Source of the DNA: a virus
Taxonomy: Duplodnaviria; Heunggongvirae; Uroviricota; Caudoviricetes
DNA: 11,090 nt
Reading direction: 5' to 3' (one strand)
IMG/VR virus record: IMGVR_UViG_2737471840_000003
Coordinates: 1-11,090 of that record
Of this stretch, positions 105 to 10,709 are shown one piece after another. The notes beneath the pieces were generated by a model, which saw only the letters and a program-made list of their open reading frames with translations, was not told the DNA's origin and did no database searches. How positions within the stretch are numbered: position 1 is the stretch's first letter; every line of letters starts with the position of its first letter. Made by a program: the position numbers and the translations under genes.

Positions 105-593
105 TCAGTGACCCGCTTTCAGGGAGTCGTACTGTCGCTCGCATGTGAGTCCTGCAGACCGATATCGCTCAGCCTCTTCTGCTGTTGCGTTGTAAACTCG
201 GTTGCTTTCTTCAAGCATGTCGGCGAGCACACCGATGACCTTGCTGGCTGGCGTGCCAGTGGGGAAAGATCCGGTATAGTGTTCGGCGAGTCGCTTGGTT
301 TTGTCAAGCTCGGCGCGCAGGCCGTCAGCAGCGGCATTAGCATGCTCAGCGTCAACACGCGCCACATCGATACGGGATTGTGCTTCACGTTCAATTTTCG
401 TCTTCTCCTGATCACGTTGTGACCTGGCCTTATCATCAGCCTGTTTCTGGTCTGCCTGCGCCTGCGCATATCCGGCGTCGTACTGGCGGCTTCCATGAAT
501 ATTCCAGGCAACCATGCCGATGACCACCAGCGCAGCAAGCATTGCCACTATAAGCAACTGTTTCCAGTATGCTTTGACGAATTCCCAGATCAT
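105..593 (-). CDS. Putative Rz-type i-spanin (inner-membrane spanin subunit)
   Basis: 162-aa ORF directly after the endolysin; ATG at 593 overlaps the endolysin stop as ATGA (590..593). It has an N-terminal hydrophobic segment ([18 protein letters not shown]) followed by a charged, coiled-coil-like region rich in Q/A/D/K/R/E, and another ORF with a lipobox is embedded in a second frame. Possible SD AAGG 9 nt upstream. Confidence 0.7.
119..367 (-). CDS. Putative Rz1-type o-spanin (outer-membrane lipoprotein), embedded in Rz in another frame
   Basis: ATG at 367..365 opens [17 protein letters not shown]: a short basic n-region, a hydrophobic core and a lipobox-like LTAC. The mature part begins Cys-APSLTKPSDSPNTIPDLSPLARQP and is proline-rich. 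It lies wholly inside the Rz ORF, as in lambda Rz/Rz1. The start is uncertain (alternative Met codons at 343 and 337) and there is no clear SD. Confidence 0.5.
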   Translation of the reverse strand: MWRVLTLSMLMPLLTACAPSLTKPSDSPNTIPDLSPLARQPARSSVCSPTCLKKATEFTTQQQKRLSDIGLQDSHASDSTTP

Positions 594-1216
594 AACAGCG
601 CCTTACGGGCAGCACCGTAACGCGTCCGCCGGTCGTCGATACCGTTCTGTCCACCGTTAATGATCTGCGTGACGCGAACCAGGTCACCTGTGTACTTCAT
701 GCAGCCTTTGGTGGCGAAGAACCACGCCGCGCTACGAGCCGCGTATTCGTCCTGCGCCAGCAGTTCAGGATTCTCCAGCAAGTCAACTTTCAAGCCGTTT
801 CCGCAGTCACGATAGTTATTCAAACCGGTAATCTGGATAAGTCCGCGACCTCGGTAATTCCAGCCATCGCCGGGGGCATTGTTCCCCATGCGTTTGCTGT
901 ACACCAGATTGGCGATCGCTCGCTGGCGCTCGAGTGGCAATGGTGGCTCACCAGCACGTCGCCCCAGTGCATTAGCCTGCCCCTGAGTGAGACGCCCAGC
1001 CCGAACGAAGTTAGCCAGTCCGCTGACGCTGTAGTTGAAATTCTCCTGCAACCGGGTGAAGCCCACAGACTCATGCCCGACCTGAGCAATAAACATTGCC
1101 AGATCTTCTGGTTTGCTGATACCAAACTCTTTCATCGCAGAAGTTATATGCGAGAACCAGCGTGCGGCCAGCGCCTCGCTAATACCAGCAGCTCGCTGGA
1201 ATTGTTTAATCTCCAT
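590..1216 (-). CDS. Endolysin, glycoside hydrolase family 19 (chitinase-like lysozyme)
   Basis: The translation from ATG at 1216 begins [53 protein letters not shown], which matches the N-terminal pattern I recall for phage GH19 endolysins (QF..A.G.S...A..W...L..AM.EF.I.....A.F.AQ..HES..F), followed by [18 protein letters not shown] lies 6 nt upstream. The track ORF 590..1381 starts at a TTG and its first 55 codons overlap the upstream membrane-protein gene, so I shortened it. Confidence 0.9.
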
Positions 1217-1514
1217 GTTTAGACCTCGATATTTTGAAAATCTGAACAACGTTACCGCGTGTTTTAATAACCGCGGCAAGCATGACAGCGTTGATAATGA
1301 CCTCAGATAAATCCACAGCCATTGGCGTGCGTAACCAGATTGCATAAGCGACACGAACTGGAATGCTGGCCGCAGCAACAATCAGGAAATAAGCAAGCCA
1401 CCCACCCCATCGCCTGTGTTGAGAACCGTTTCTCCGAAATGTGGCAACTCGAACTGCTATACCGGCGCAAATAACCGCATTGGTGGTAAGCAAAAAAAGC
1501 TCATGAGTTACCAT
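1206..1514 (-). CDS. Small membrane protein, putative holin (lysis cassette)
   Basis: 102 aa with an ATG start at 1514 and a strong SD (GGGGAG about 8 nt upstream). It has 2-3 hydrophobic segments ([51 protein letters not shown]) and a charged C-terminus. Its 3' end overlaps the endolysin start by 11 nt. The function is assigned from position and topology only. Confidence 0.65.
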
Positions 1515-1905
1515 CGTCTTTTCTCCCCGGAATTAACTCGCGTGGATTATCGGAACGGTGATAGAGCCAGATCCCAATTCGCACAGCGACGATTGCTGAC
1601 ACAAATGCACCGGCAGAGAAAACAATCCCTTTCTCGAAAGAATCCTGTGTGATTGTAGGGATCAGGCTGGCTATGCCGATAAGAATTGATGCTGCTGGTT
1701 TGTAGAATAGAAGTCCGCAGAGAAAGCTAAGCATCGACAAGAGCACGCGACGACGAATTGGATACTCAACGGCAGAGGTAATAAATATTACCGCGCCGGA
1801 TAAAGCACCAAGAGCGACCTCTGGAGGAACCCCGGCAATGACAGCAGCCAGAGAACCCATGCTAAGCCACTGATTTAAAGACTCACTGGTTAGCTGAGCT
1901 GACAT
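1501..1905 (-). CDS. Membrane protein, putative holin or antiholin partner (lysis cassette)
   Basis: The track ORF 1501..1914 starts at GTG; the first ATG is at 1905 with GGTGG 5 nt upstream, giving 134 aa. It has about four hydrophobic segments and a charged C-terminal tail ([19 protein letters not shown]). A second Met at residue 16 (MGSLAAV..) sits just before the first TM segment. It overlaps the next membrane-protein gene by 14 nt. Confidence 0.55.
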   Translation of the reverse strand: MSAQLTSESLNQWLSMGSLAAVIAGVPPEVALGALSGAVIFITSAVEYPIRRRVLLSMLSFLCGLLFYKPAASILIGIASLIPTITQDSFEKGIVFSAGAFVSAIVAVRIGIWLYHRSDNPRELIPGRKDDGNS

Positions 1906-2001
1906 ATCAGCCACCGTTTACTGTGCATAATGAACCCCCTTAGTTGGTAAGTCCATCATACACAATAAACCATATATGGATAAGTTTACCTCGGATAACT
2001 C

Positions 2002-2078: not shown

Positions 2079-3068
2079 ATGAATGAGAAGAACTATGGTG
2101 TAGTTTTAGCTCGTTTCATCGCCATTGTGCTGGTGGTGTTGCTGCATGTTGCTGCTGGTCCAGTTGGTGCAAAGTCTTCGCCTGATTGGGATTGGGCTAA
2201 CGTATATAGTGCCATATCAAAGCAATGCATTGGTATTTTCATAGTTATAACAGGGTTTCTTTACTACCATAAAAAGAAATTCGAATTCTATGATTACATT
2301 AAAAAGGGGTTTAATGTATTATTTGTCCCTCTTGTATTTTGGTGGGTAATATATGCATCTTATTACATTATATTTAAAGATGCTTCCGTAAGCAGCTTTA
2401 ATATTATGAAGCCATCTGCTGTCCATCTATGGTTTATGTATCATTATATTGCGATTTACATGTTTCTCCCGATGATAATTATTGGATGCCAACGCATGGA
2501 TTTGCGGTATAACGTGATGATATTTTTAATTCTATTCTATGGGAATTCTGTACACCCACAGCTAAAGAATTTCATTCCTAATGCACCATCTATAGATATT
2601 CCATTTGTAAGTACATTAATGTTCTATATTTTTGCCGGATGTATAGTTGCAAGACTTGAAAGCCATATCATAAAATTACGCGCTTTCATTTCGTTAACTG
2701 CTGTTATCCTTGCGGTTATATGTGTCTTTACAAATAAGGCTATATTGATTCATGGGATCAAAGGAGTAAACCTAAGCAACTTTAGCCCCATTGTTGGCAT
2801 GACAGCAATAGCAACAACCTGCGCCTGCATTGGATACGCAGACAGAATAAGCAAAAATGCAAATAAACTTGTAACTCTAATTTCCGAATATGCATTTGGA
2901 ATTTATCTTATACATCCTATTATTATATTTATAACATGGAAAATAGCTCCAGTATCAAATTATGCATGGGGAATACCTGTTGCAACTATATTTTATGTCT
3001 TTGCGTCCATGTTGATAGCTGTGATACTTTCAAAAACTCCTTTGTTAAATAGGGTGATAGCCAAGTAA
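2079..3068 (+). CDS. Acyltransferase family 3 integral membrane protein, probable O-antigen/polysaccharide O-acetyltransferase (lysogenic-conversion moron)
   Basis: 329-aa ORF that is hydrophobic throughout, with about 10 predicted TM segments. The N-terminus (YGVVLARFIAIVLVVLLHVAAGP) carries the conserved Arg and His positions I associate with acyltransferase-3 enzymes. Its length is close to short phage Oac-type acetylases. It lies on the opposite strand to all flanking phage genes, is very AT-rich (about 27-32% GC on hand-counted lines), and ends at a bidirectional terminator. Confidence 0.8.
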   Translation: MNEKNYGVVLARFIAIVLVVLLHVAAGPVGAKSSPDWDWANVYSAISKQCIGIFIVITGFLYYHKKKFEFYDYIKKGFNVLFVPLVFWWVIYASYYIIFKDASVSSFNIMKPSAVHLWFMYHYIAIYMFLPMIIIGCQRMDLRYNVMIFLILFYGNSVHPQLKNFIPNAPSIDIPFVSTLMFYIFAGCIVARLESHIIKLRAFISLTAVILAVICVFTNKAILIHGIKGVNLSNFSPIVGMTAIATTCACIGYADRISKNANKLVTLISEYAFGIYLIHPIIIFITWKIAPVSNYAWGIPVATIFYVFASMLIAVILSKTPLLNRVIAK

Positions 3069-3097
3069 AAAAAAAGCCCCTCTACGGGGCATTTTTT
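3067..3097. terminator. Bidirectional rho-independent terminator between convergent acyltransferase and tailspike genes
   Basis: An A-run (3067..3075), a stem GCCCC (3076..3080) / GGGGC (3086..3090) with loop TCTAC, then a T-run (3092..3097). It reads as hairpin plus U-tract on both strands. It overlaps both stop codons. Confidence 0.65.
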
Positions 3098-5780
3098 AAA
3101 TAGCAGAAATAATGAAACATAACATCTCATCATATCTCAAAGAGTAACCATCACCAGCTTCGCAACCTGAGAATGTCATGATTCCATTTTCATCATATTC
3201 TGGTTCCTTCTTATCCCACTTATCGTAGCAAACCATCCCATAACGCATGGGATCTAGCCCTTCATCCTCGAACGCAGAGATAACATCCTGGACAATTGCA
3301 CCTATATGATATCTTGCGCCATCGCCTTTAATAGCTACCGCATCCTTCATTCTGTACCGACAAATCATTCCCTTAATCTTGATAGCCACGCGCTTTTCGG
3401 CTTCACTTATATCCTCGAAATCTGTCTTCTTTCTTCTGTCAGATGTGTTAATGGAACCAGAATCGGCGTAGACCTGAGTCCATTTAAATGATGCACTCCC
3501 GTTAGACTGCGCGCTAGCGACGCCAGGCAATACCTGATCACTGTAAATCTGAAGAGATTGAGTCCCACCACTTTCACTTGTCACTGTCGGATTTGTGAAG
3601 AAGAAAATAGCATTAGGGTTTAAAGTACCCCCTGAGCCGATAACAAGAGGCGTAGAGGTACCGGTATAGTTTATTTGAGCGATGCCAACTTCTTTTCCTG
3701 TTGACGTTGTAAATGATATTTTGCCTAAACCACCTGAATTATTAATATTAAGCTTTGTTCCTGACAATGAGCGCCTTGTAGCTGTCCATGACCCAATGCT
3801 GCCAACTACGGAATAAATTTCTAGCCCAAGTACAGTACCGGAGGATTCAATAATGAATCCTGCATTGTTCAGATTAGTAACATGGTAAATTTGTCCTGTT
3901 ACGTAGTTAAGACCAGGTATCGTGGTGAGCGAAGGAGCAATGGTTGAAAACCAAGAGAACTCAGTTATGTTTAATGAAGCCATTAAATCAAGAATTTGAG
4001 AAACACTGCTGAAGACTGTATTTAAGACTGGATCGCGCAATTCCCCACGCTCCGAACGCATGAGCCTATTAAATCCATATGTTGGGAGAGGACAATATCC
4101 GGAAGCGGCATCCAGCATGTTAAATCCATCCCGTGAAAACTCCCTCATTATAACAATGCCATTGGGTGTGCTAGGAGATGATTCAGCCATATCACCGATA
4201 AGAATTGAATGGATAGTGCCGTCAGGGTGCTTGAAACATCCCTCTGACTCTGTTCTTGAGACGGTGCAACCGTTTGATGCCAGATAAGTCATCAACTTAT
4301 CTGATTTCACAACAGAGTGGTCTATTAACTCACCAGAGAGTGACACTCTGAGGACTCCGTAATCATGAACAGGGTATTTTGCATCATCAAATGTAGGACG
4401 ATAACTGCCACCTACGCCTATATGAAGGATCCCATTTTTGTATGCTATACCCTGAATTTTCCATACCATGTAATAGTAGGTAGGGGAGAGCTCTGGAGTT
4501 GCAAACCCTGTAAGCATCTGAGAGACATTTATTGTTCCCTGCTTCTCACCTGTATCAAGACGATAAGAATTTATAACAGTCTGTGATTGTGACAATCCTA
4601 CTGGTGTCGCGTTTAATGTGCAGAAGAGTAAATTACCATCAATGCACATATGTGATCCAGCCGACTGAATTGTCGTTATTGTGTGCCCTGAAAGCGTGCT
4701 ACCTGCTGCGGGTAATGTGGTTATGTCATAATAATAAACAAAATCATCCCCAAGACGTCTGTCATACAATCTACGTGATGAACTTCCGCCATATATAGCC
4801 ACAGACTGATTACTACTGTTTGGACTATAAAACCACGTTACTTGCTCTCCTGCCTGGTTATAAACAACTATAACCCTAAGCGCCCCTCCAGCATTAGGCA
4901 CATAGTTAATGAAGAGTAGACCATCATCATCATAGTCAGCACCCTGCGGGTATATGATGCTTCCAGCTCCAATTGCCGCCAGTGCATCAGAATACCCATC
5001 GAACTGAAATGGAAGTTTGTAGATTATTTTTTTCCTGAAATTCTGATCTTTAATGGCACTACCAACAGTACCGTCAGGATACTGGATAGAATCGCTATAA
5101 CCTGATAACCCGGCACCTGTTGGTTTCACTAATTCAACAAGAACATCAGTGGCAGAACCAGATGGCGGCAATGTTACAAAAGGAGACCCACTATTATCGA
5201 AGGCTATTATCTTGTTCGCCCTGACAGCGGCAGATGGAAGTGTGGGTATAGGTTCAGGTGTTCTTAGCGTTCTGTTGAGATTGGTTTCAGAAATACTGTC
5301 TACATAGTTCTTTGTAGCAGCATCTTGCGGCCGAGATGGATCCCTGAGATTTCTGATATAGTTGCCCAGGGCGTCATAATAGTTGGCTACAAAGGATGGT
5401 TTTCTTAACGACAGACTAAACCAACTTCTTACCTGCTGAACAAGCATAGTTAACTTATCAAATGCATCCTCATGCACTTCTGCAAAAAACTTCCCCTGGT
5501 TCCTTAGGTCTGTTTCTTGGGTAACCGGCAACTCTCTTGAAATAGAAATCTTATACCCATTGCCTAAAGCAGTTGATAAAACAACATTCCCCCCCGTGTA
5601 TCCACCAGTACCTGTAATCGAATAATCAGTATCAAGCACAAGAGTGGTTATATTTTCATCCAGATCAACAACCTGCACAACCAGGTCTGACTTCTGAAAA
5701 ATTCGAAAGGTATAAGGAAATGAAGTCGTAACGCCATTACCTGTATATTCGTTATGGTCAACTTCGGTTGAGACCGTCAT
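3096..5780 (-). CDS. Tailspike / tail fibre protein with C-terminal intramolecular chaperone (peptidase S74-like) domain
   Basis: 894-aa ORF with ATG at 5780 and SD GGAG 9 nt upstream. The N-terminal roughly 120 aa (MTVSTEVDHNEYTGNGVTTSFPYTFRIFQKSDLVVQVVD...) resemble the conserved particle-binding module of epsilon15-like tailspikes as I recall it. The C-terminal 115 aa begin SDRRKKTDFEDIS and contain YHIGAIVQDV, which fits the S74 autoproteolytic chaperone pattern. The central part is Ser/Thr/Gly/Asn-rich and looks beta-rich. Confidence 0.9.
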   Translation of the reverse strand: MTVSTEVDHNEYTGNGVTTSFPYTFRIFQKSDLVVQVVDLDENITTLVLDTDYSITGTGGYTGGNVVLSTALGNGYKISISRELPVTQETDLRNQGKFFAEVHEDAFDKLTMLVQQVRSWFSLSLRKPSFVANYYDALGNYIRNLRDPSRPQDAATKNYVDSISETNLNRTLRTPEPIPTLPSAAVRANKIIAFDNSGSPFVTLPPSGSATDVLVELVKPTGAGLSGYSDSIQYPDGTVGSAIKDQNFRKKIIYKLPFQFDGYSDALAAIGAGSIIYPQGADYDDDGLLFINYVPNAGGALRVIVVYNQAGEQVTWFYSPNSSNQSVAIYGGSSSRRLYDRRLGDDFVYYYDITTLPAAGSTLSGHTITTIQSAGSHMCIDGNLLFCTLNATPVGLSQSQTVINSYRLDTGEKQGTINVSQMLTGFATPELSPTYYYMVWKIQGIAYKNGILHIGVGGSYRPTFDDAKYPVHDYGVLRVSLSGELIDHSVVKSDKLMTYLASNGCTVSRTESEGCFKHPDGTIHSILIGDMAESSPSTPNGIVIMREFSRDGFNMLDAASGYCPLPTYGFNRLMRSERGELRDPVLNTVFSSVSQILDLMASLNITEFSWFSTIAPSLTTIPGLNYVTGQIYHVTNLNNAGFIIESSGTVLGLEIYSVVGSIGSWTATRRSLSGTKLNINNSGGLGKISFTTSTGKEVGIAQINYTGTSTPLVIGSGGTLNPNAIFFFTNPTVTSESGGTQSLQIYSDQVLPGVASAQSNGSASFKWTQVYADSGSINTSDRRKKTDFEDISEAEKRVAIKIKGMICRYRMKDAVAIKGDGARYHIGAIVQDVISAFEDEGLDPMRYGMVCYDKWDKKEPEYDENGIMTFSGCEAGDGYSLRYDEMLCFIISAI
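3099..3443 (-). other. Predicted S74-type autocleaving chaperone domain of the tailspike (C-terminal 115 codons)
   Basis: Begins at the Ser codon (3441..3443) of the SDRRKK motif and runs to the last sense codon. By analogy with endosialidase and T5 L-shaped fibre chaperone domains, cleavage is expected at this Ser. Confidence 0.6.
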
Positions 5781-5834
5781 GTTAAATCTCCAGATAGTCG
5801 CAGCACCCGTTGCGCCGCATATCCGGTTATTCTA

Positions 5835-5899
5835 TTACCTGAAAAACCACATATGGATAGATAAACCATAAATACGAACAGATATTACCTTTCAGGTGA
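5835..5899. promoter_or_regulatory. Inverted-repeat element in the divergent intergenic region upstream of the tailspike
   Basis: TTACCTGAAA (5835..5844) and TTTCAGGTGA (5890..5899) are inverted 10-bp arms with one mismatch, 45 bp apart. The right arm also forms a local hairpin ACCT-TTC-AGGT (5887..5897). They sit 55-120 nt upstream of the tailspike ATG. Function unknown. Confidence 0.3.
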
Positions 5900-5975
5900 T
5901 TCGCAAAACGTGCTGGATAGCAAACAAATTATTTGCTACTGTATAAATATACAGTTATTGCATGGAGAAGATAAG

Positions 5976-6233
5976 ATGCAGCAGTATCACTATCCACTGG
6001 AAGACGGATTTACCGAAAGGATTCACACGCCGGGAGGCGTCAGGTCACTGGTGGAGGGATCGCACTTGATGAAATTACTCCGGGATCTCGATAAGGATGG
6101 ATTTAATGTCGATGGCCCACTTGCCGAACTGACTGCACTGATTAACTACGTCACCAGCTCACAGATGTCTATGCAGGATCTGCAAACACATCTCGACTAT
6201 TGTGCCGAACAATTACGAAAACAAATCCGGTAA
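5976..6233 (+). CDS. Hypothetical small protein (85 aa), orphan plus-strand gene between virion genes and tailspike
   Basis: ATG at 5976 with SD GGAG 8 nt upstream. The track ORF 5910..6233 starts at GTG with an implausible N-terminus. A TGTATAAAT element at 5940..5948 is -10-like. GC content matches the phage core (34/60 on line 6001). Stop TAA is at 6231..6233, followed by the hairpin at 6241..6256. I recognise no family for MQQYHYPLEDGFTERIHTPGGVRSLVEG.... Confidence 0.5.
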   Translation: MQQYHYPLEDGFTERIHTPGGVRSLVEGSHLMKLLRDLDKDGFNVDGPLAELTALINYVTSSQMSMQDLQTHLDYCAEQLRKQIR

Positions 6234-6240
6234 ATTTAAG

Positions 6241-6256
6241 GGCCGCGAAAGCGGCC
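6241..6256. terminator. GC-rich hairpin, probable terminator for the convergent small genes and the upstream virion operon
   Basis: GGCCGC-GAAA-GCGGCC is a perfect 6-bp stem with a GNRA-type loop. On the minus strand it is followed by CTTAAATTT, a weak U-tract; there is no T-run on the plus strand. It lies between the stop of the 85-aa plus-strand ORF and the stop of the 46-aa minus-strand ORF. Confidence 0.4.
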
Positions 6257-6276: not shown

Positions 6277-6417
6277 CTATGACAAACCTATGTACCCTGC
6301 TACACCAGATAATATCAAAACAACTGCTACAGCAAATTCACCGTCTTCAATGATACATTTACGATTCATAACGCCAAGGGCAACAAGCACAAATACAACA
6401 AGAATAAAAGCAATCAT
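6277..6417 (-). CDS. Unannotated 46-aa two-TM membrane peptide (not in the ORF track)
   Basis: ATG at 6417 with SD AAGGA 6 nt upstream; the SD overlaps the TAA stop of the 824-aa gene (minus strand reads CCGCAA-TAA-GGATGAGAA-ATG). My hand translation is MIAFILVVFVLVALGVMNRKCIIEDGEFAVAVVLILSGVAGYIGLS, with stop TAG at 6279..6277. It shows two hydrophobic segments separated by a short charged loop (NRKCIIEDGE). Confidence 0.4.
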   Translation of the reverse strand: MIAFILVVFVLVALGVMNRKCIIEDGEFAVAVVLILSGVAGYIGLS

Positions 6418-6426
6418 TTCTCATCC

Positions 6427-8901
6427 TTATTGCGGAGTGACATCCTGAGGTCGCCACCAGTATGTCTGGTTAAACTCTTTCTTCGAACGTTGCTCCATTT
6501 TACGCAAATAGCCTGGTGAAAAATACTCCTGCATCTGGTTAAAGATCATGTGATCGAGAGCCGCCTTCAAGTACCAGAGATTCGCACCTGGCATCAAACC
6601 TTTCCCCAGCTTCACCAGATCACCACCAGTCTGCTCACTCTTCCCTTCCACAGCATTTAACGGTATGCCCTGAGCAATCTTCACTACGTCATCAACCAGA
6701 CCAGCCACCGGGCCAAGCATCGACGCCAGCGCGCCGCTTCCGTACCTAGTGTGATCTGACAATAAAAAGTCACCGTAAAGGCCAAGACCACCACCTTTCA
6801 ATAGAGCACCAAGCCAGAATTTTGCGGCATCTTCTCCTGTCATCTCGCGAGGATTACGACCAGACGCAAGGTCGTTAAGTTGCTGCGACAAAGCTCCAAG
6901 AATGGTCGTACTGGCAATAAACGTCGCAATATATGCCGCACGCCCACCAGCAGACGGCATACCCATAGCGCGTGACCAGTGACGCATAACCACCGAGATA
7001 GGGAACGATTTAAACAGGAAAACACTTCTCGTTAATTCACCTTTCCATGTTCCACGCTGAATACCAGAACCGGTTATCAGTTGCTCACGTGCTCCCGGTG
7101 TAATAACAGCCATATCAACTTCTTCAGTTACGGCACCGAGCAGTTTACGCATTGCCTCAAATTTCACGCGTTCAGGCTCACCAAGATGTTTAACTGCTGA
7201 ATCAGGGATACGCATAATGCTTTCCGGTGTCAGCATCGTATTATTACCGTTCCCCCAGTCCTCCTGTTGCGCCAACTTCCATACGCTCCAGTCTGTGTCA
7301 GTAATCCCTTTGCTTTTCAGGATACGAAAATCAGAGTCATCGAGGCTACGAAGGCCTGGTGTCCGTGACACTACTTCTCCCAGGCTTCCCATCATGGTTA
7401 CGCCATAGGCGCGCTTGTGCGCATCTGACCATGCTGTAAGCCCACTGGCACGCATTACCGCCGTTGCAGCCCAACGAGACACAGACGGCCCCATATTATC
7501 CATCGCCCAGCGGTTAACGCTGCCAAGTAGAGATTCCATCGCCAGACCAGCGCGGCGCGCCCGCGCAAGCTCAGTACGGTTCGTTGGGTCCATAGCTTCA
7601 AGCTGGTTGCGGAATAACTGGTTCATCGGAAGGTTGGTCACCTTCGCAGACAGATACATGGTTCCAAGATCAGAGAACGATGACAGCAACGCGGATCCGA
7701 GTCTGCTGGCAACCAGCCAGTTGCGGATATTGTCAGACCATCGCGCGATGTGCGGATTCGCTACAGGCTGTGTCTTTCCGGAAATAAAGTTGTACAGATT
7801 CTCTGTGTTGTTCGCCAGCCGCTCGACTTTACCGGTTTTACTCGGGTTAGCTGTTGCCGTTTCTGCCTTAACCTGATCAAGAAGGGAGCGGAAAACATGA
7901 TCGGGGTTTGGACCATATGTTTCCACCAGAGCAATATCTTTACTGATACCTTCCAGGTGACCGACCATGATTTCCCATAGAGAGCGATCGCCATAAAGTT
8001 GTTGATATTGGAGATAGGAATCTGCATCTTTGAAATGTATCTGTCGTGATGCATTACCACGGTTAGCACGTGCGCCGGAAATTCGCATTCCGGTATCAGT
8101 AAGCTTATTCAGCCCACCAGTAGCGATCGTGTTATAAGCCTCTCCAAGAAATGCAGACAACTCGGCATCGTTCATCAGTTGTCCATCGGCTCGGGTATAA
8201 TATTTGCGATCCAGCTTACCTATAACATCGCTAACCCATTTATCTTTTGATACCGCACCAACCTTTTCCATAGAATGATGTTGAGGGATCCCCCAGTTTT
8301 CGAGATAGCCAATGTCCCCACCAGCATCATTAAACCGGCGGCGCAGCAGCTCTGTAACTTCTCTCCACGCCTTAGCACCTTTTCTTGCTTTAGCATTGCC
8401 AGTATTTTGCCCCCGCATTTCATATACCAGGTCACGTACGCCCGCTTCATCTTCAAACAGACCAAAAAAGCGAGGATCAACTGCTTCGAATGCCTCCTGC
8501 AATTGACTCAATGCATAATCACGGGTGGCTTTTGTTCTGGATTCAACAGAGAGGAAATTAGATTTACCGTCTGCATTAAAAGCTATAGTACGGTTAAGAG
8601 CGCCAAGTTTCCCATCAGCCCCTTGATAGCTATTGATAAATTTATCCAATCTCTGACGCGCGGCTATAGTGAGAGCCACACGACGTTTCTTTAATGCCGC
8701 TTCTCGCTGTAATTCTTCAGATGCCAATTGTGCTGCTCGATATAGCCGCTCTGATTCGGAAAGTTGTCGCCACGACATCGGGTCATCACGAGCAATGGAG
8801 CGCATATTTCGATAAATGCGGTCTTCAATGTTTTGTATTTCTCGCGCCGTTAAAGTGCGCTGCGCCGCCTGCTGGACCGCTTGTATACATTCCTGTCTCA
8901 T
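6427..8901 (-). CDS. Large virion protein (824 aa), putative internal core / ejection protein
   Basis: ATG at 8901 with SD GAGG about 11 nt upstream, 5 nt after the stop of the 600-aa gene. It has a helical, charged N-terminus and C-terminal Gly-rich hydrophobic stretches (AAYIATFIASTTILGAL, FWLGALLKGGGLGLYGDFLL, LASMLGPVAGLV). No enzymatic motif recognised. The function is inferred from size, composition and position upstream of the tailspike. Confidence 0.8.
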   Translation of the reverse strand: MRQECIQAVQQAAQRTLTAREIQNIEDRIYRNMRSIARDDPMSWRQLSESERLYRAAQLASEELQREAALKKRRVALTIAARQRLDKFINSYQGADGKLGALNRTIAFNADGKSNFLSVESRTKATRDYALSQLQEAFEAVDPRFFGLFEDEAGVRDLVYEMRGQNTGNAKARKGAKAWREVTELLRRRFNDAGGDIGYLENWGIPQHHSMEKVGAVSKDKWVSDVIGKLDRKYYTRADGQLMNDAELSAFLGEAYNTIATGGLNKLTDTGMRISGARANRGNASRQIHFKDADSYLQYQQLYGDRSLWEIMVGHLEGISKDIALVETYGPNPDHVFRSLLDQVKAETATANPSKTGKVERLANNTENLYNFISGKTQPVANPHIARWSDNIRNWLVASRLGSALLSSFSDLGTMYLSAKVTNLPMNQLFRNQLEAMDPTNRTELARARRAGLAMESLLGSVNRWAMDNMGPSVSRWAATAVMRASGLTAWSDAHKRAYGVTMMGSLGEVVSRTPGLRSLDDSDFRILKSKGITDTDWSVWKLAQQEDWGNGNNTMLTPESIMRIPDSAVKHLGEPERVKFEAMRKLLGAVTEEVDMAVITPGAREQLITGSGIQRGTWKGELTRSVFLFKSFPISVVMRHWSRAMGMPSAGGRAAYIATFIASTTILGALSQQLNDLASGRNPREMTGEDAAKFWLGALLKGGGLGLYGDFLLSDHTRYGSGALASMLGPVAGLVDDVVKIAQGIPLNAVEGKSEQTGGDLVKLGKGLMPGANLWYLKAALDHMIFNQMQEYFSPGYLRKMEQRSKKEFNQTYWWRPQDVTPQ

Positions 8902-8906
8902 TTAAT

Positions 8907-10709
8907 TTAACCTCTCAAGAAACACGCCACAGCGACATCAAACAGGCTGGAATCCTGTATTGCCTGCTCACTTTCCCTGTTCGCTTCATCCAGTACTTCA
9001 CGCGCGCTGCGCGATTGTGGATTACCATCATCATCCAGCACGGTGATTATCATGTCAGGTGATTCAAGCAGCGAGTCTTCAGCTATGCGCAGATCAATAT
9101 CTCCTGCCGGATCTGCCATCATTTTTTGTTCTGTCTGTTGCAATATCTTACCGGGCTCAAAAGGAGCTACTTCGTCTGGCGTCCTGACCTCTGCTGTTTT
9201 ATAGAATGAAACAGCCTGAGCATTAAGTTCACTTTCTGCCTGCTGTCGTCGTGCCAGTTCTGCTCGAGCTTCAAAAAACTGACCGCCAGGCTCATGCGGT
9301 GCCAACGCGTTACGGGAAAATTCCAGGCGCTCTTGTGCCTGCCGGATTCGTTGGTCAATATCGCGAAGTCTGACCTGTTTATCTGATCGAGCACGAGACA
9401 AAGCTTTACCGCTACCGGTTGGCTCTTCTGCAAGAATTTGTGCGCGCTGTTCAGTGAGATTTTCAATAATTCGTTGGCTATTAGCGATTTCAGACTGGTA
9501 AACCTGTCTATCGCCACGCGGCAAAAGCTGCGCGGCCTGTTCTTCAAGCAACCGATTTTCTATAGCGCGCGCCGTTACTCCATCATCTACAGATGACAGA
9601 GCCTCATTAACTGCCTGAGACAGCAGACTCTTGCGCCCAGGAATTTCACTGAAAGATGCAGACTCAACAATGCTGGCAACGTCTACAGGTCTCCCCTGGC
9701 TAACATCAGACATAGCTTTTCGCAGAGCCTGAATGTGAGAATTGCGCGAAAGCACGTTGATCGGCACGCCGGGCGCAATATCAATTTCAGCATGATGAGC
9801 GGCATTCGCCGCCAGTGCAGCATCAACATCAACTGGTGAAAAATTTGGTGCGCTTGTAGACTCGCCGCGAGAGTTCATAAATCTGCCGACACCACCAAAC
9901 GCCACCCCAAGAACAGCATCAATAGCAATTGCCTGTCGATCCAACACATCATACTGGTTAGCCATTTCGCTATAGCCACCATCACGAAGCGTTTTTGCAG
10001 TAAGCCCACGCTGTGCCATACCGAACGCAATATTTGTACCTGCGGCATAGGCAATATCTGGCGTTGCACGTACTGCTGTTGCTGCGGCGCGTCGCACTGA
10101 ACTTTCACCCGTCCGCGCAAGCTGGGCCGCCACACCTTCCGCCAGCGCACCACCAGCACGTAACCCGAGGCTCATAGGGATCAGTGTTCCGGCACCAGCA
10201 GTAATACCCTGCACTAATCCCGCTTCCTGCGCCGTCCTGAAATCAACACCCTGTGCTGTCAGCCGTTCAAACTCAGAAAAACCCTGTAGAGAAGTTACCG
10301 CCGCAGCACCTCCGACCGGACCACCGAGCGTTGTACCGACAACAGCCTGCCCTCCCATATCGAACAACCCATAAAGGACCTGCCCGGCGGTTCCGGTTGT
10401 CGCGGCATCAGGCGTCAGCCGCTTAACCTGCTGCTCTGCTAGTTTTCTCTGCTCAGCAATGTATGAAACTGAAGTGTCATTAAGCGAGGTGTTTTCGTTA
10501 ACAAACTGAGCAATCGGGGATACGATTTTATCCATCCCTGCCCATAGCAACTGATCTGGCTTTGCCACCAGCCCGGAGTACAAACCAGACAATGCCGCTC
10601 CTACAGCATTGTCGAAAAAACCAACATTGCTGTTAAAGCCAGCTGGATTTGATGCTGCTTCGTCAAGCTGCTGATTCTGGCTTACTGGATTAAGGCCAAA
10701 GTAACTCAT
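8907..10709 (-). CDS. Large Gly/Ala-rich virion protein (600 aa), putative internal core / ejection protein
   Basis: ATG at 10709 overlaps the upstream gene's stop as ATGA (10706..10709); GGAG lies about 10 nt upstream. It has long Gly/Ala-rich low-complexity stretches (VVGTTLGGPVGGAAAVTSL, GITAGAGTLIPMSLGLRAGGALAEGVAAQLA) and a charged helical region (EQRAQILAEE...RQAQERLE). No enzymatic motif recognised. Confidence 0.8.
   Translation of the reverse strand: MSYFGLNPVSQNQQLDEAASNPAGFNSNVGFFDNAVGAALSGLYSGLVAKPDQLLWAGMDKIVSPIAQFVNENTSLNDTSVSYIAEQRKLAEQQVKRLTPDAATTGTAGQVLYGLFDMGGQAVVGTTLGGPVGGAAAVTSLQGFSEFERLTAQGVDFRTAQEAGLVQGITAGAGTLIPMSLGLRAGGALAEGVAAQLARTGESSVRRAAATAVRATPDIAYAAGTNIAFGMAQRGLTAKTLRDGGYSEMANQYDVLDRQAIAIDAVLGVAFGGVGRFMNSRGESTSAPNFSPVDVDAALAANAAHHAEIDIAPGVPINVLSRNSHIQALRKAMSDVSQGRPVDVASIVESASFSEIPGRKSLLSQAVNEALSSVDDGVTARAIENRLLEEQAAQLLPRGDRQVYQSEIANSQRIIENLTEQRAQILAEEPTGSGKALSRARSDKQVRLRDIDQRIRQAQERLEFSRNALAPHEPGGQFFEARAELARRQQAESELNAQAVSFYKTAEVRTPDEVAPFEPGKILQQTEQKMMADPAGDIDLRIAEDSLLESPDMIITVLDDDGNPQSRSAREVLDEANRESEQAIQDSSLFDVAVACFLRG

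Follow-up and report, generated by a model that had tools for sequence, protein, structure and literature searches.

A predicted Rep operator and a lone half-site between the divergent tailspike and ant genes of an epsilon15/phiV10-type prophage

The element described here is already known: it is the homologue of a site annotated in phage epsilon15 and lies within a switch that has been characterised in phage SPC32H. The Rep–Ant–LexA antirepression switch of SPC32H was reportedly described by Kim & Ryu in 2013 (J Virol) and by Kim et al. in 2016 (PNAS), and its structures are PDB entries 5D50 and 5D4Z. LexA-controlled Ant inactivates the tetrameric Rep, which binds palindromic sites (PMC7380047, PMC9638917). 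The tetramerisation domain of Rep resembles that of the DNA-looping repressor Rco, and the way in which Rep represses has been called not well characterised (PMC9986798). In the GenBank record of epsilon15 (AY150271 / NC_004775), seven sites of 16–17 bp are annotated as protein_bind 'repressor'; as far as checked, these annotations are predictions. One of them, at 19895–19911 between gp19 and gp20, occupies the same alignment columns as positions 5884–5900 of the DNA analysed here.

Two further groups of repressors offer partial parallels. Phage P1 C1 and the gp71 protein of mycobacteriophage L5 with its stoperators are each a case of one repressor with a dozen or more scattered sites, which lie before or between most transcription units instead of being confined to OL and OR. 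Unlike the Uetakevirus sites, which are symmetric dyads and include an OL/OR-like cluster, those of P1 and L5 are asymmetric; the L5 stoperators block elongation in an orientation-dependent manner, and the proteins are not homologous. The looping repressors (lambda CI at OL–OR, LacI, GalR and pLS20 Rco) are comparable in that Rep is a tetramer with an Rco-like C-terminal domain (PMC9986798) and in that an operator and a half-site stand at a fixed distance of 50 bp around the tailspike -35 element. They differ in that looping at this locus is hypothetical, the second site is a half-site only and a 50-bp loop would be very tight.

The window, i.e. the whole stretch of 11,090 nt that was analysed, is on sequence grounds a piece of an epsilon15/phiV10-type (Uetakevirus) prophage. 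The region around the repeat considered below is 92–96% identical to the Uetakevirus phages phiV10, TL-2011b, PAS61 and ZX5, and about 75–77% identical to epsilon15, SPC32H, SPN1S, Tyrion and 65FD. The genes of the window, named by mapping onto phiV10 and checked with PHROGs and PDB searches, are as follows.

About 105–1914, minus strand: lysis cassette
2079–3068, plus strand: O-acetyltransferase gene (oac)
3096–5780, minus strand: tailspike gene (894 aa), divergent from ant
5976–6233, plus strand: ant, encoding an 85-aa SPC32H-type antirepressor, homologue of epsilon15 gp19 and phiV10 p24
6427–8901 and 8907–10709, minus strand: virion proteins

The tailspike gene and ant are separated by a divergent intergenic region of 195 bp (5781–5975), which is in all probability the tailspike/ant control region of a temperate podophage of the epsilon15/phiV10/SPC32H type. 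It holds the following features.

5829–5834, minus strand: predicted -10 element of the tailspike promoter P_tsp, TAGAAT (from hexamer, spacing and conservation)
5833–5839, no strand assigned: lone half-site TATTACC (GGTAATA on the minus strand), the source of the TTACC core (5835–5839) of the left repeat arm
5845–5859, minus strand: shared promoter-region motif TATCCATATGTGGTT with the core CATATRTGGTT (from a motif scan)
5852–5857, minus strand: predicted P_tsp -35 element TCCATA (TTCATA in most relatives), 17 nt from the -10
5884–5900, no strand assigned: complete 17-bp palindromic operator ATTACCTTTCAGGTGAT, a predicted Rep binding site (from motif scans, the epsilon15 annotation and conservation)
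5914–5919, plus strand: predicted ant -35 element TGGATA, 17 nt from TACTGT (5937–5942)
5937–5956, no strand assigned: LexA (SOS) box TACTGTATAAATATACAGTT, overlapping the predicted ant -10 TACTGT (from consensus match and conservation)

We read this arrangement as a Rep operator and a half-site at P_tsp, placed beside a LexA-controlled ant. To this reading, which is carried by the observed anatomy, conservation, distribution and homology, we assign a probability of roughly 0.8.

The sequence-only reading had described the locus as a pair of ten-bp inverted repeats 45 nt apart, and its coordinates are correct: the left arm TTACCTGAAA occupies 5835–5844 and the right arm TTTCAGGTGA 5890–5899, with a gap of 45 nt. 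Reverse-complemented, the right arm reads TCACCTGAAA. The repeat is thus present but imperfect (nine of ten positions complementary), and a repeat search returned it as an inverted repeat of 11 nt at 91%. Most relatives carry TTTCAGGTAA in the right arm, which makes the repeat there 10/10. As bare statistics, the inverted repeat alone is within chance. When the 195-bp intergenic region is shuffled by dinucleotides, 28% of the shuffles yield an equally good one (10-nt arms, at most one mismatch, gap of at most 60), and the whole window contains 32 such pairs against 22.6 ± 6.9 expected.

The non-random part of the repeat is the conservation of its outer cores, TTACC and GGTAA. The comparison covered a set of 67 distinct close relatives taken from IMG/VR and a diverse set of 14 that spans eight genera (Escherichia, Salmonella, Enterobacter, Klebsiella, Citrobacter, Erwinia, Pseudocitrobacter and Scandinavium). 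In the 67 close relatives, the five outermost bases of either arm (TTACC / GGTAA) are invariant, pairs 1 and 3–5 of the long-range arm pairing showing no variation and pair 2 being T/A in 51 sequences and T/G in 16. Among the 14 diverse relatives, the left TTACC is invariant in every one and the right GGTAA likewise, except for a G variant at 5898 in the window and phiV10. The right arm is made up of a spacer and the right half of the 17-bp palindrome at 5884–5900, and the left arm is a separate lone half-site. The ten-bp repeat appears as a by-product of comparing this half-site with the far half of the palindrome and does not form a unit. The sequence-only reading, which had preferred an operator, was therefore right about the kind of element; it drew the unit wrongly, as arms 45 bp apart instead of a local palindrome of 17 bp.

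The operator reads ATTACCT-TTC-AGGTGAT, and its core TTACC-N5-GGTGA departs at one position from TTACC-N5-GGTAA. The departure falls on a conserved position, and the GGTGA variant is shared by 16 of the 67 distinct relatives, phiV10 included. The epsilon15 site between gp19 (ant) and gp20 (tailspike) is the same 17-bp dyad, ATTACC-N5-GGTAAT, from which the window copy differs by this half-site mismatch. The pattern ATTACCTnnnAGGTAAT occurs, at no more than two mismatches, at nine places in the complete phiV10 genome, all of them intergenic. Counts of the core TTACC-N5-GGTAA with at most one mismatch in the two complete genomes are given here.

phiV10: 14 sites, 12 of them non-coding (non-coding share of the genome 6.5%; 1.3 sites expected); 8 exact sites against 0.02 expected
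epsilon15: 15 sites, 14 of them non-coding (non-coding share of the genome 6.6%; 1.1 sites expected); 11 exact sites against 0.02 expected

In epsilon15, three of the sites lie downstream of the repressor gene gp38 (32479, 32555 and 32617) and three more between gp38 and the divergent gp39 (33341, 33358 and 33388). With a triplet on either side, the repressor gene shows the OL/OR pattern known from immunity repressors. Further sites stand singly ahead of the terminase gene, the structural operon, the tailspike, lysis and integrase genes and two early-right genes. The epsilon15 annotation misses several of the sites found by the scan (e.g. 24704, 33341, 33358 and 35969), and it leaves the lone half-site next to the tailspike -10 unmarked. 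The window itself contains two operator copies, at 5884–5900 and, in weaker form, between oac and the lysis cassette, where a second copy of the shared motif is also found.

1968–1982, minus strand: second shared-motif copy, TATCCATATATGGTT, followed after 9 nt by a -10-like hexamer TATGAT, ahead of the lysis cassette
2010–2026, no strand assigned: weaker operator-like palindrome ATTACCTTATGGGTATA with the core TTACC-N5-GGTAT, in the oac/lysis intergenic region; its homologues are phiV10 24691–24707 and epsilon15 24704–24718

The centre of the operator varies freely among the related loci (TTTCA, TTTCG, TTGCG, TTACA, TTTTA, GATAA and others). The same is seen in the 14 diverse relatives, where ATTACC and AGGT.A are invariant and the central bases vary. 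Invariant half-sites around a free centre are, at the level of sequence, the signature of a dimeric DNA-binding protein. The site at 5884–5900 has the 17-bp dyad form and a position homologous to that of the annotated epsilon15 site, and in the complete relatives phiV10 and epsilon15 it belongs to a multi-copy intergenic set that includes the clusters at the repressor gene. The Uetakevirus immunity repressor Rep, of the family of epsilon15 gp38 and SPC32H Rep, is, rather than another protein, the probable binder of 5884–5900.

The promoters of the region were placed by consensus matches only. P_tsp would be a sigma-70-type promoter on the minus strand, TCCATA-N17-TAGAAT, with a start near 5822. 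In relatives its -10 also occurs as TACAAT and TAAACT, the TAnnnT form being kept in all; the 17-nt spacer is always kept, and ATATG at 5851–5855 is invariant. The predicted ant -35 coincides with the invariant CTGGA at 5913–5917. A sigma-70 promoter scan of the window found no promoter at the scan threshold, because TCCATA and TACTGT match only three of six positions, and the promoter calls therefore rest on conservation. Measured from these positions, the operator centre is ~70 bp upstream of the tailspike start and ~57 bp upstream of the ant start, which is predicted near 5949 on the plus strand. As the operator lies clear of both core promoters, Rep bound to it alone would not work by simple occlusion.

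The sequence-only reading had also placed the second copy of a shared motif between the arms, which is confirmed: CCACATATGGATA occupies 5847–5859, with CCAYATATGGATA matched exactly a second time at 1970–1982. At up to two mismatches, CCAYATATGGATA has six matches against 0.6 expected, and none of 200 shuffles reaches six. The predicted P_tsp -35 TCCATA lies inside the copy at 5847–5859. In phiV10 and epsilon15, the core CATATRTGGTT is found in five intergenic regions on the late/rightward strand, each of which has a Rep operator; they lie ahead of the structural operon, the tailspike and lysis genes and two early-right genes. Matches number 8 and 6 in the two genomes, respectively, where about 1.2 are expected. 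A -10-like hexamer follows the core at a fixed 9 nt (12 nt in the alternative register) at the promoters of the structural, tailspike and lysis genes, and the tailspike -10 adopted here, TAGAAT, lies 3 nt downstream of the -10-like hexamer first aligned. The motif is probably a promoter-region element of this phage group that covers the tailspike -35 region, and not the core of a crossover site. It may be merely a -35 element plus spacer or the site of a further factor.

Conservation within the intergenic region is concentrated at these features. In the alignment of the 14 diverse sequences, 66 of 201 positions are invariant, and the invariant runs of at least 4 nt are TATTACC (5833–5839), ATATG (5851–5855), ATTACC (5884–5889), AGGT (5894–5897), CTGGA (5913–5917) and ATACAGT (5949–5955); from this list, two of the three longest invariant blocks are half-sites that contain TTACC. 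TATTACC, at 7 nt, is one of the two joint-longest runs and directly abuts the predicted tailspike -10. It has the same form as the left half of the operator with its flank, from which it is separated by 50 bp in 77 of 82 loci and by 49–51 bp in the rest. In five extra species, the half-site, the operator and the LexA box stand at exactly -146, -94 and -40 from the ant ATG. Despite this fixed spacing, the sequence between the three is not conserved. A second full operator around the left arm was considered and rejected, as neither flank of 5834–5840 resembles a partner half.

Other promoters of the group show related arrangements. At the structural-operon promoter, GGTAAT likewise stands against the -10, and the phiV10 p45 promoter has a full operator where, relative to the CATATRTGGTT core, the tailspike promoter has its half-site. 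The lysis promoter, which has both the operator and the shared motif, lacks a half-site at its -10.

The ant side of the region corresponds closely to SPC32H, in which 'ant' is annotated at the same position and ant and tsp have the same divergent arrangement. The window Ant matches PDB 5D50 chain E ('Anti-repressor protein') over residues 2–83 with E = 1.6e-46. The LexA box agrees with TACTGTATATATATACAGTA at 18 of 20 positions, both mismatches lying outside CTGT/ACAG, and it is conserved in all relatives. Shared with SPC32H are the Ant homologue, the divergent ant/tsp pair, a LexA box over the (here predicted) ant promoter and an intergenic operator, TTACCTTACAGGTAA; a Rep homologue that lacks a Peptidase_S24 match is seen in the relative phiV10 (p40). 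The differences are that the host here is E. coli, that the tailspike is another one and that the rep gene falls outside the window. Its presence in this genome is assumed from the relatives. Phage phiV10 p40 is a full-length homologue of SPC32H Rep (5D50_A, E = 1.9e-41); in a Pfam search it had HTH-type matches only and none to Peptidase_S24. It shares 42% identity overall with epsilon15 gp38, and 53% in the N-terminal part, which includes NLVNRW.

The overlap of the LexA box with the predicted ant -10 matches the published LexA–Ant–Rep circuit (PMC7380047, PMC9638917), and the locus would work within it as follows. In a lysogen, Rep would occupy the operator and perhaps, because it is tetrameric, also the half-site 50 bp away, and would keep the tailspike promoter silent, as it would at ~12 other operator-bearing promoters. 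LexA, bound to the box at 5937–5956, would keep ant off. DNA damage would remove LexA and allow Ant to be made; Ant would then disassemble Rep, and all operator-controlled promoters, the tailspike promoter included, would be released.

A recombination crossover or invertible segment, which the sequence-only reading had mentioned as an option, would have a recombinase flip 5845–5889 and so switch tailspike expression on or off. Its appeal is one of geometry, with inverted arms around a promoter-containing segment near a tailspike gene, and of precedent, with inverted repeats similarly placed near tail-fibre or tailspike genes in the Mu G/Gin, P1 C/Cin and fim systems. Known invertible segments (Gin, Cin, fim) have an adjacent invertase, repeats of 9–34 bp and lengths from 314 bp to about 4 kb, whereas the segment here is 45 bp, far below that range (roughly 300 bp to several kb), and a motif with 14–15 occurrences per genome accounts for the arms. 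Not one of 85 related loci is inverted (76 match in the forward direction). There is no invertase among the window genes; as the sequence-only reading had said, no recombinase is visible in the window, its content being lysis, O-acetyltransferase, tailspike, ant and virion proteins. The recombinase that might have been sought elsewhere in the genome is not found in the annotations of the complete relatives phiV10 and epsilon15 either, which list only a tyrosine integrase. Inversion is therefore scarcely credible. Pairing of the arms in RNA, as a cis-regulatory hairpin formed by the plus strand of 5834–5900, is hardly better placed. The plus strand does fold at -12.8 kcal/mol with the arms paired (z = -2.86), but the region lies upstream of both predicted transcription starts, the minus strand folds no better than shuffles (z = -0.53) and no Rfam family matches the region. 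Nor are the arms conserved with compensatory changes, for which the sequence-only reading had suggested looking: arm pairs 6–8 show one-sided changes in 29, 17 and 9 of the 67 sequences, respectively, or 55 cells in all, and a two-sided change that keeps the pair occurs in two sequences only (C/G at pair 6), the cores alone being conserved. This pattern of variation is, on the alignment, that of protein half-sites and not of a stem. A third reading keeps the palindromes as operators and gives them to another phage regulator, either a Cro-like protein (gp39/p41) or the 'transcriptional regulator' gp49/p55, so that they would serve lytic timing and not lysogenic silencing. Sites are indeed found before nearly every operon, late ones included, and the operator stands upstream of the core promoters, where activators are more typically found. 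Against this stand the triple clusters that flank the repressor gene in the classic immunity arrangement and the epsilon15 authors' own annotation of the sites as repressor sites. The distances from the operator to the -10-like hexamers TAATAG, TATAAT and TAATAA at three late promoters (46, 49 and 58 nt) are out of the helical phase that a class I activator needs, and we rejected the activator reading of the upstream operator on that ground; that these distances differ from one another also counts against our own reading. A Cro-type protein on the same operators would be compatible with Rep as the repressor and would not replace it. We consider this third reading improbable, if less so than the RNA hairpin.

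Within the reading as Rep operator and half-site, the question is what the half-site does, and any role for it, or for looping, is conjectural. Because the 50-bp spacing is conserved and the repressor is tetrameric, looping between the operator and the half-site is possible. The half-site and the operator 50 bp upstream may cooperate in that one Rep tetramer holds both; its two DNA-binding pairs, which point in opposite ways, would then wrap or loop the tailspike -35 region. This proposal is tentative. A lone half-site normally binds weakly, and the very tight loop of 50 bp counts against looping, as does the lack of an IHF-like site in the intergenic region. A comparably doubtful alternative is that the palindrome is a Rep operator and that the left TATTACC is no repressor site but is conserved only as promoter sequence, covering -13 to -19 beside the tailspike -10, with the repeat accidental. 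In that case ant would be the main target of Rep at 5884–5900, or Rep would form a weak roadblock upstream. Coincidence is favoured by the direct contact of the half-site with TAGAAT, by the lack of such a half-site at the lysis promoter, by the lone AGGTAAT 7-mers within coding regions and by an inverted repeat that is within chance. Coincidence has more difficulty with seven invariant bases that are identical to the operator's left half and flank and are better conserved than the -10 hexamer itself, and with a spacing of exactly 50 bp across eight genera over intervening sequence that is not conserved. It also has to accommodate GGTAAT next to the structural-operon -10 and the full operator in the same place at the phiV10 p45 promoter, and GGTAA at -17 to -13 fits no known sigma-70 extended -10 (TGn).

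If the two sites do cooperate, repression would take a 'one-and-a-half operator' form so far undescribed in this repressor family, and tailspike expression would be coupled directly to the LexA–Ant switch across the same operator. The Rep operator and half-site in themselves turn the repeat into a known cassette of tailspike promoter, Rep operator, LexA box and ant, which adds little beyond correct annotation. That annotation is transferable to many unannotated prophages of this type in E. coli, Citrobacter, Klebsiella and Enterobacter. For work on the SPC32H/epsilon15 switch, two observations may be of use: the half-site sequence and its 50-bp distance are conserved in at least eight genera, and the CATATRTGGTT core accompanies Rep operators at five rightward promoters.

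A few minor observations concern the same elements. A boxB/nut-like antitermination hairpin on the minus strand (ACCUGAAAGGU) was considered and rejected, as the loop bases differ at every copy. A text search of the literature for the motif string returned nothing relevant. The lone 7-mer AGGTAAT is found inside coding regions too. The intergenic region of the window has no match to the IHF consensus WATCAR-N4-TTR at up to one mismatch; in epsilon15, an IHF site is annotated next to the operator.

The 85-aa product of the gene at 5976–6233 (+ strand), which is divergent from the tailspike gene, is a close homologue of Ant, the antirepressor of the related phage SPC32H (PDB 5D50, chain E). Because this gene, ant, also has a LexA box directly upstream, the prophage is probably induced by the SOS response through antirepression and not through repressor cleavage. 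The features around ant are:

5800–5819, − strand: small GC-rich hairpin (GCGC...GCGC) in the tailspike 5′ leader
5918–5938: 21-bp near-palindrome TAGCAAACAA-T-TTATTTGCTA, arms 90% complementary
5937–5956: strong LexA box TACTGTATAAATATACAGTT, matching the consensus at 18 of 20 positions
6241–6256: perfect GC hairpin GGCCGCTTTCGCGGCC between the convergent ant and small membrane-protein genes
6277–6417, − strand: small membrane-protein gene

The hairpin that follows ant is probably a bidirectional terminator that would shield ant from read-through of the late operon. The near-palindrome sits in the predicted ant promoter's spacer and is kept in E. coli-type relatives only, not being conserved in relatives from Salmonella, Klebsiella or Enterobacter.

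Sites resembling the predicted operator of the immunity repressor Rep, and the CATATRTGGTT core, recur in the window and in the complete genomes of its relatives phiV10 and epsilon15:

Window, 2010–2026: ATTACCTTATGGGTATA, a second palindrome that resembles the Rep operator, between the divergent O-acetyltransferase and lysis genes
phiV10, 87–101 and 105–119: two operator copies within the annotated ORF 41–715
epsilon15, 12–26 and 30–44: two operator copies upstream of the terminase small-subunit gene
Window, 1968–1982 and 5845–5859: CATATRTGGTT core
phiV10, 3308, 20921, 24739, 33135 and 35116: CATATRTGGTT core
epsilon15, 2988, 19940, 24751, 33752 and 35953: CATATRTGGTT core

The second palindrome of the window has homologous sites in phiV10 (24691–24707) and epsilon15 (24704–24718, not annotated in the epsilon15 record). 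The two copies that precede the terminase small-subunit gene in epsilon15 are within the ORF in phiV10, whose start codon may be annotated too far upstream. In both phages, the CATATRTGGTT core occurs on the late (rightward) strand at five homologous intergenic promoters, and a Rep operator adjoins it at every one of these. At late-gene promoters (n = 3), the core and a −10-like hexamer are separated by 9 nt. The core may be a consensus shared by promoters in this group of phages, or else some further regulator may bind there.

The tailspike (gene 3096–5780) is modular, since its N-terminal 150–290 residues form the conserved Uetakevirus particle-binding domain while its receptor-binding middle is unlike the phiV10 and epsilon15 counterparts. 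Intramolecular chaperone domains from the tail proteins of phages (PDB 3GUD, 3GW6 and 4UW8) match its C-terminus (residues ~749–891). The hairpin in the tailspike leader, the 5-pair consensus stem of which displays almost no covariation, is kept in all relatives and might stabilise the mRNA.
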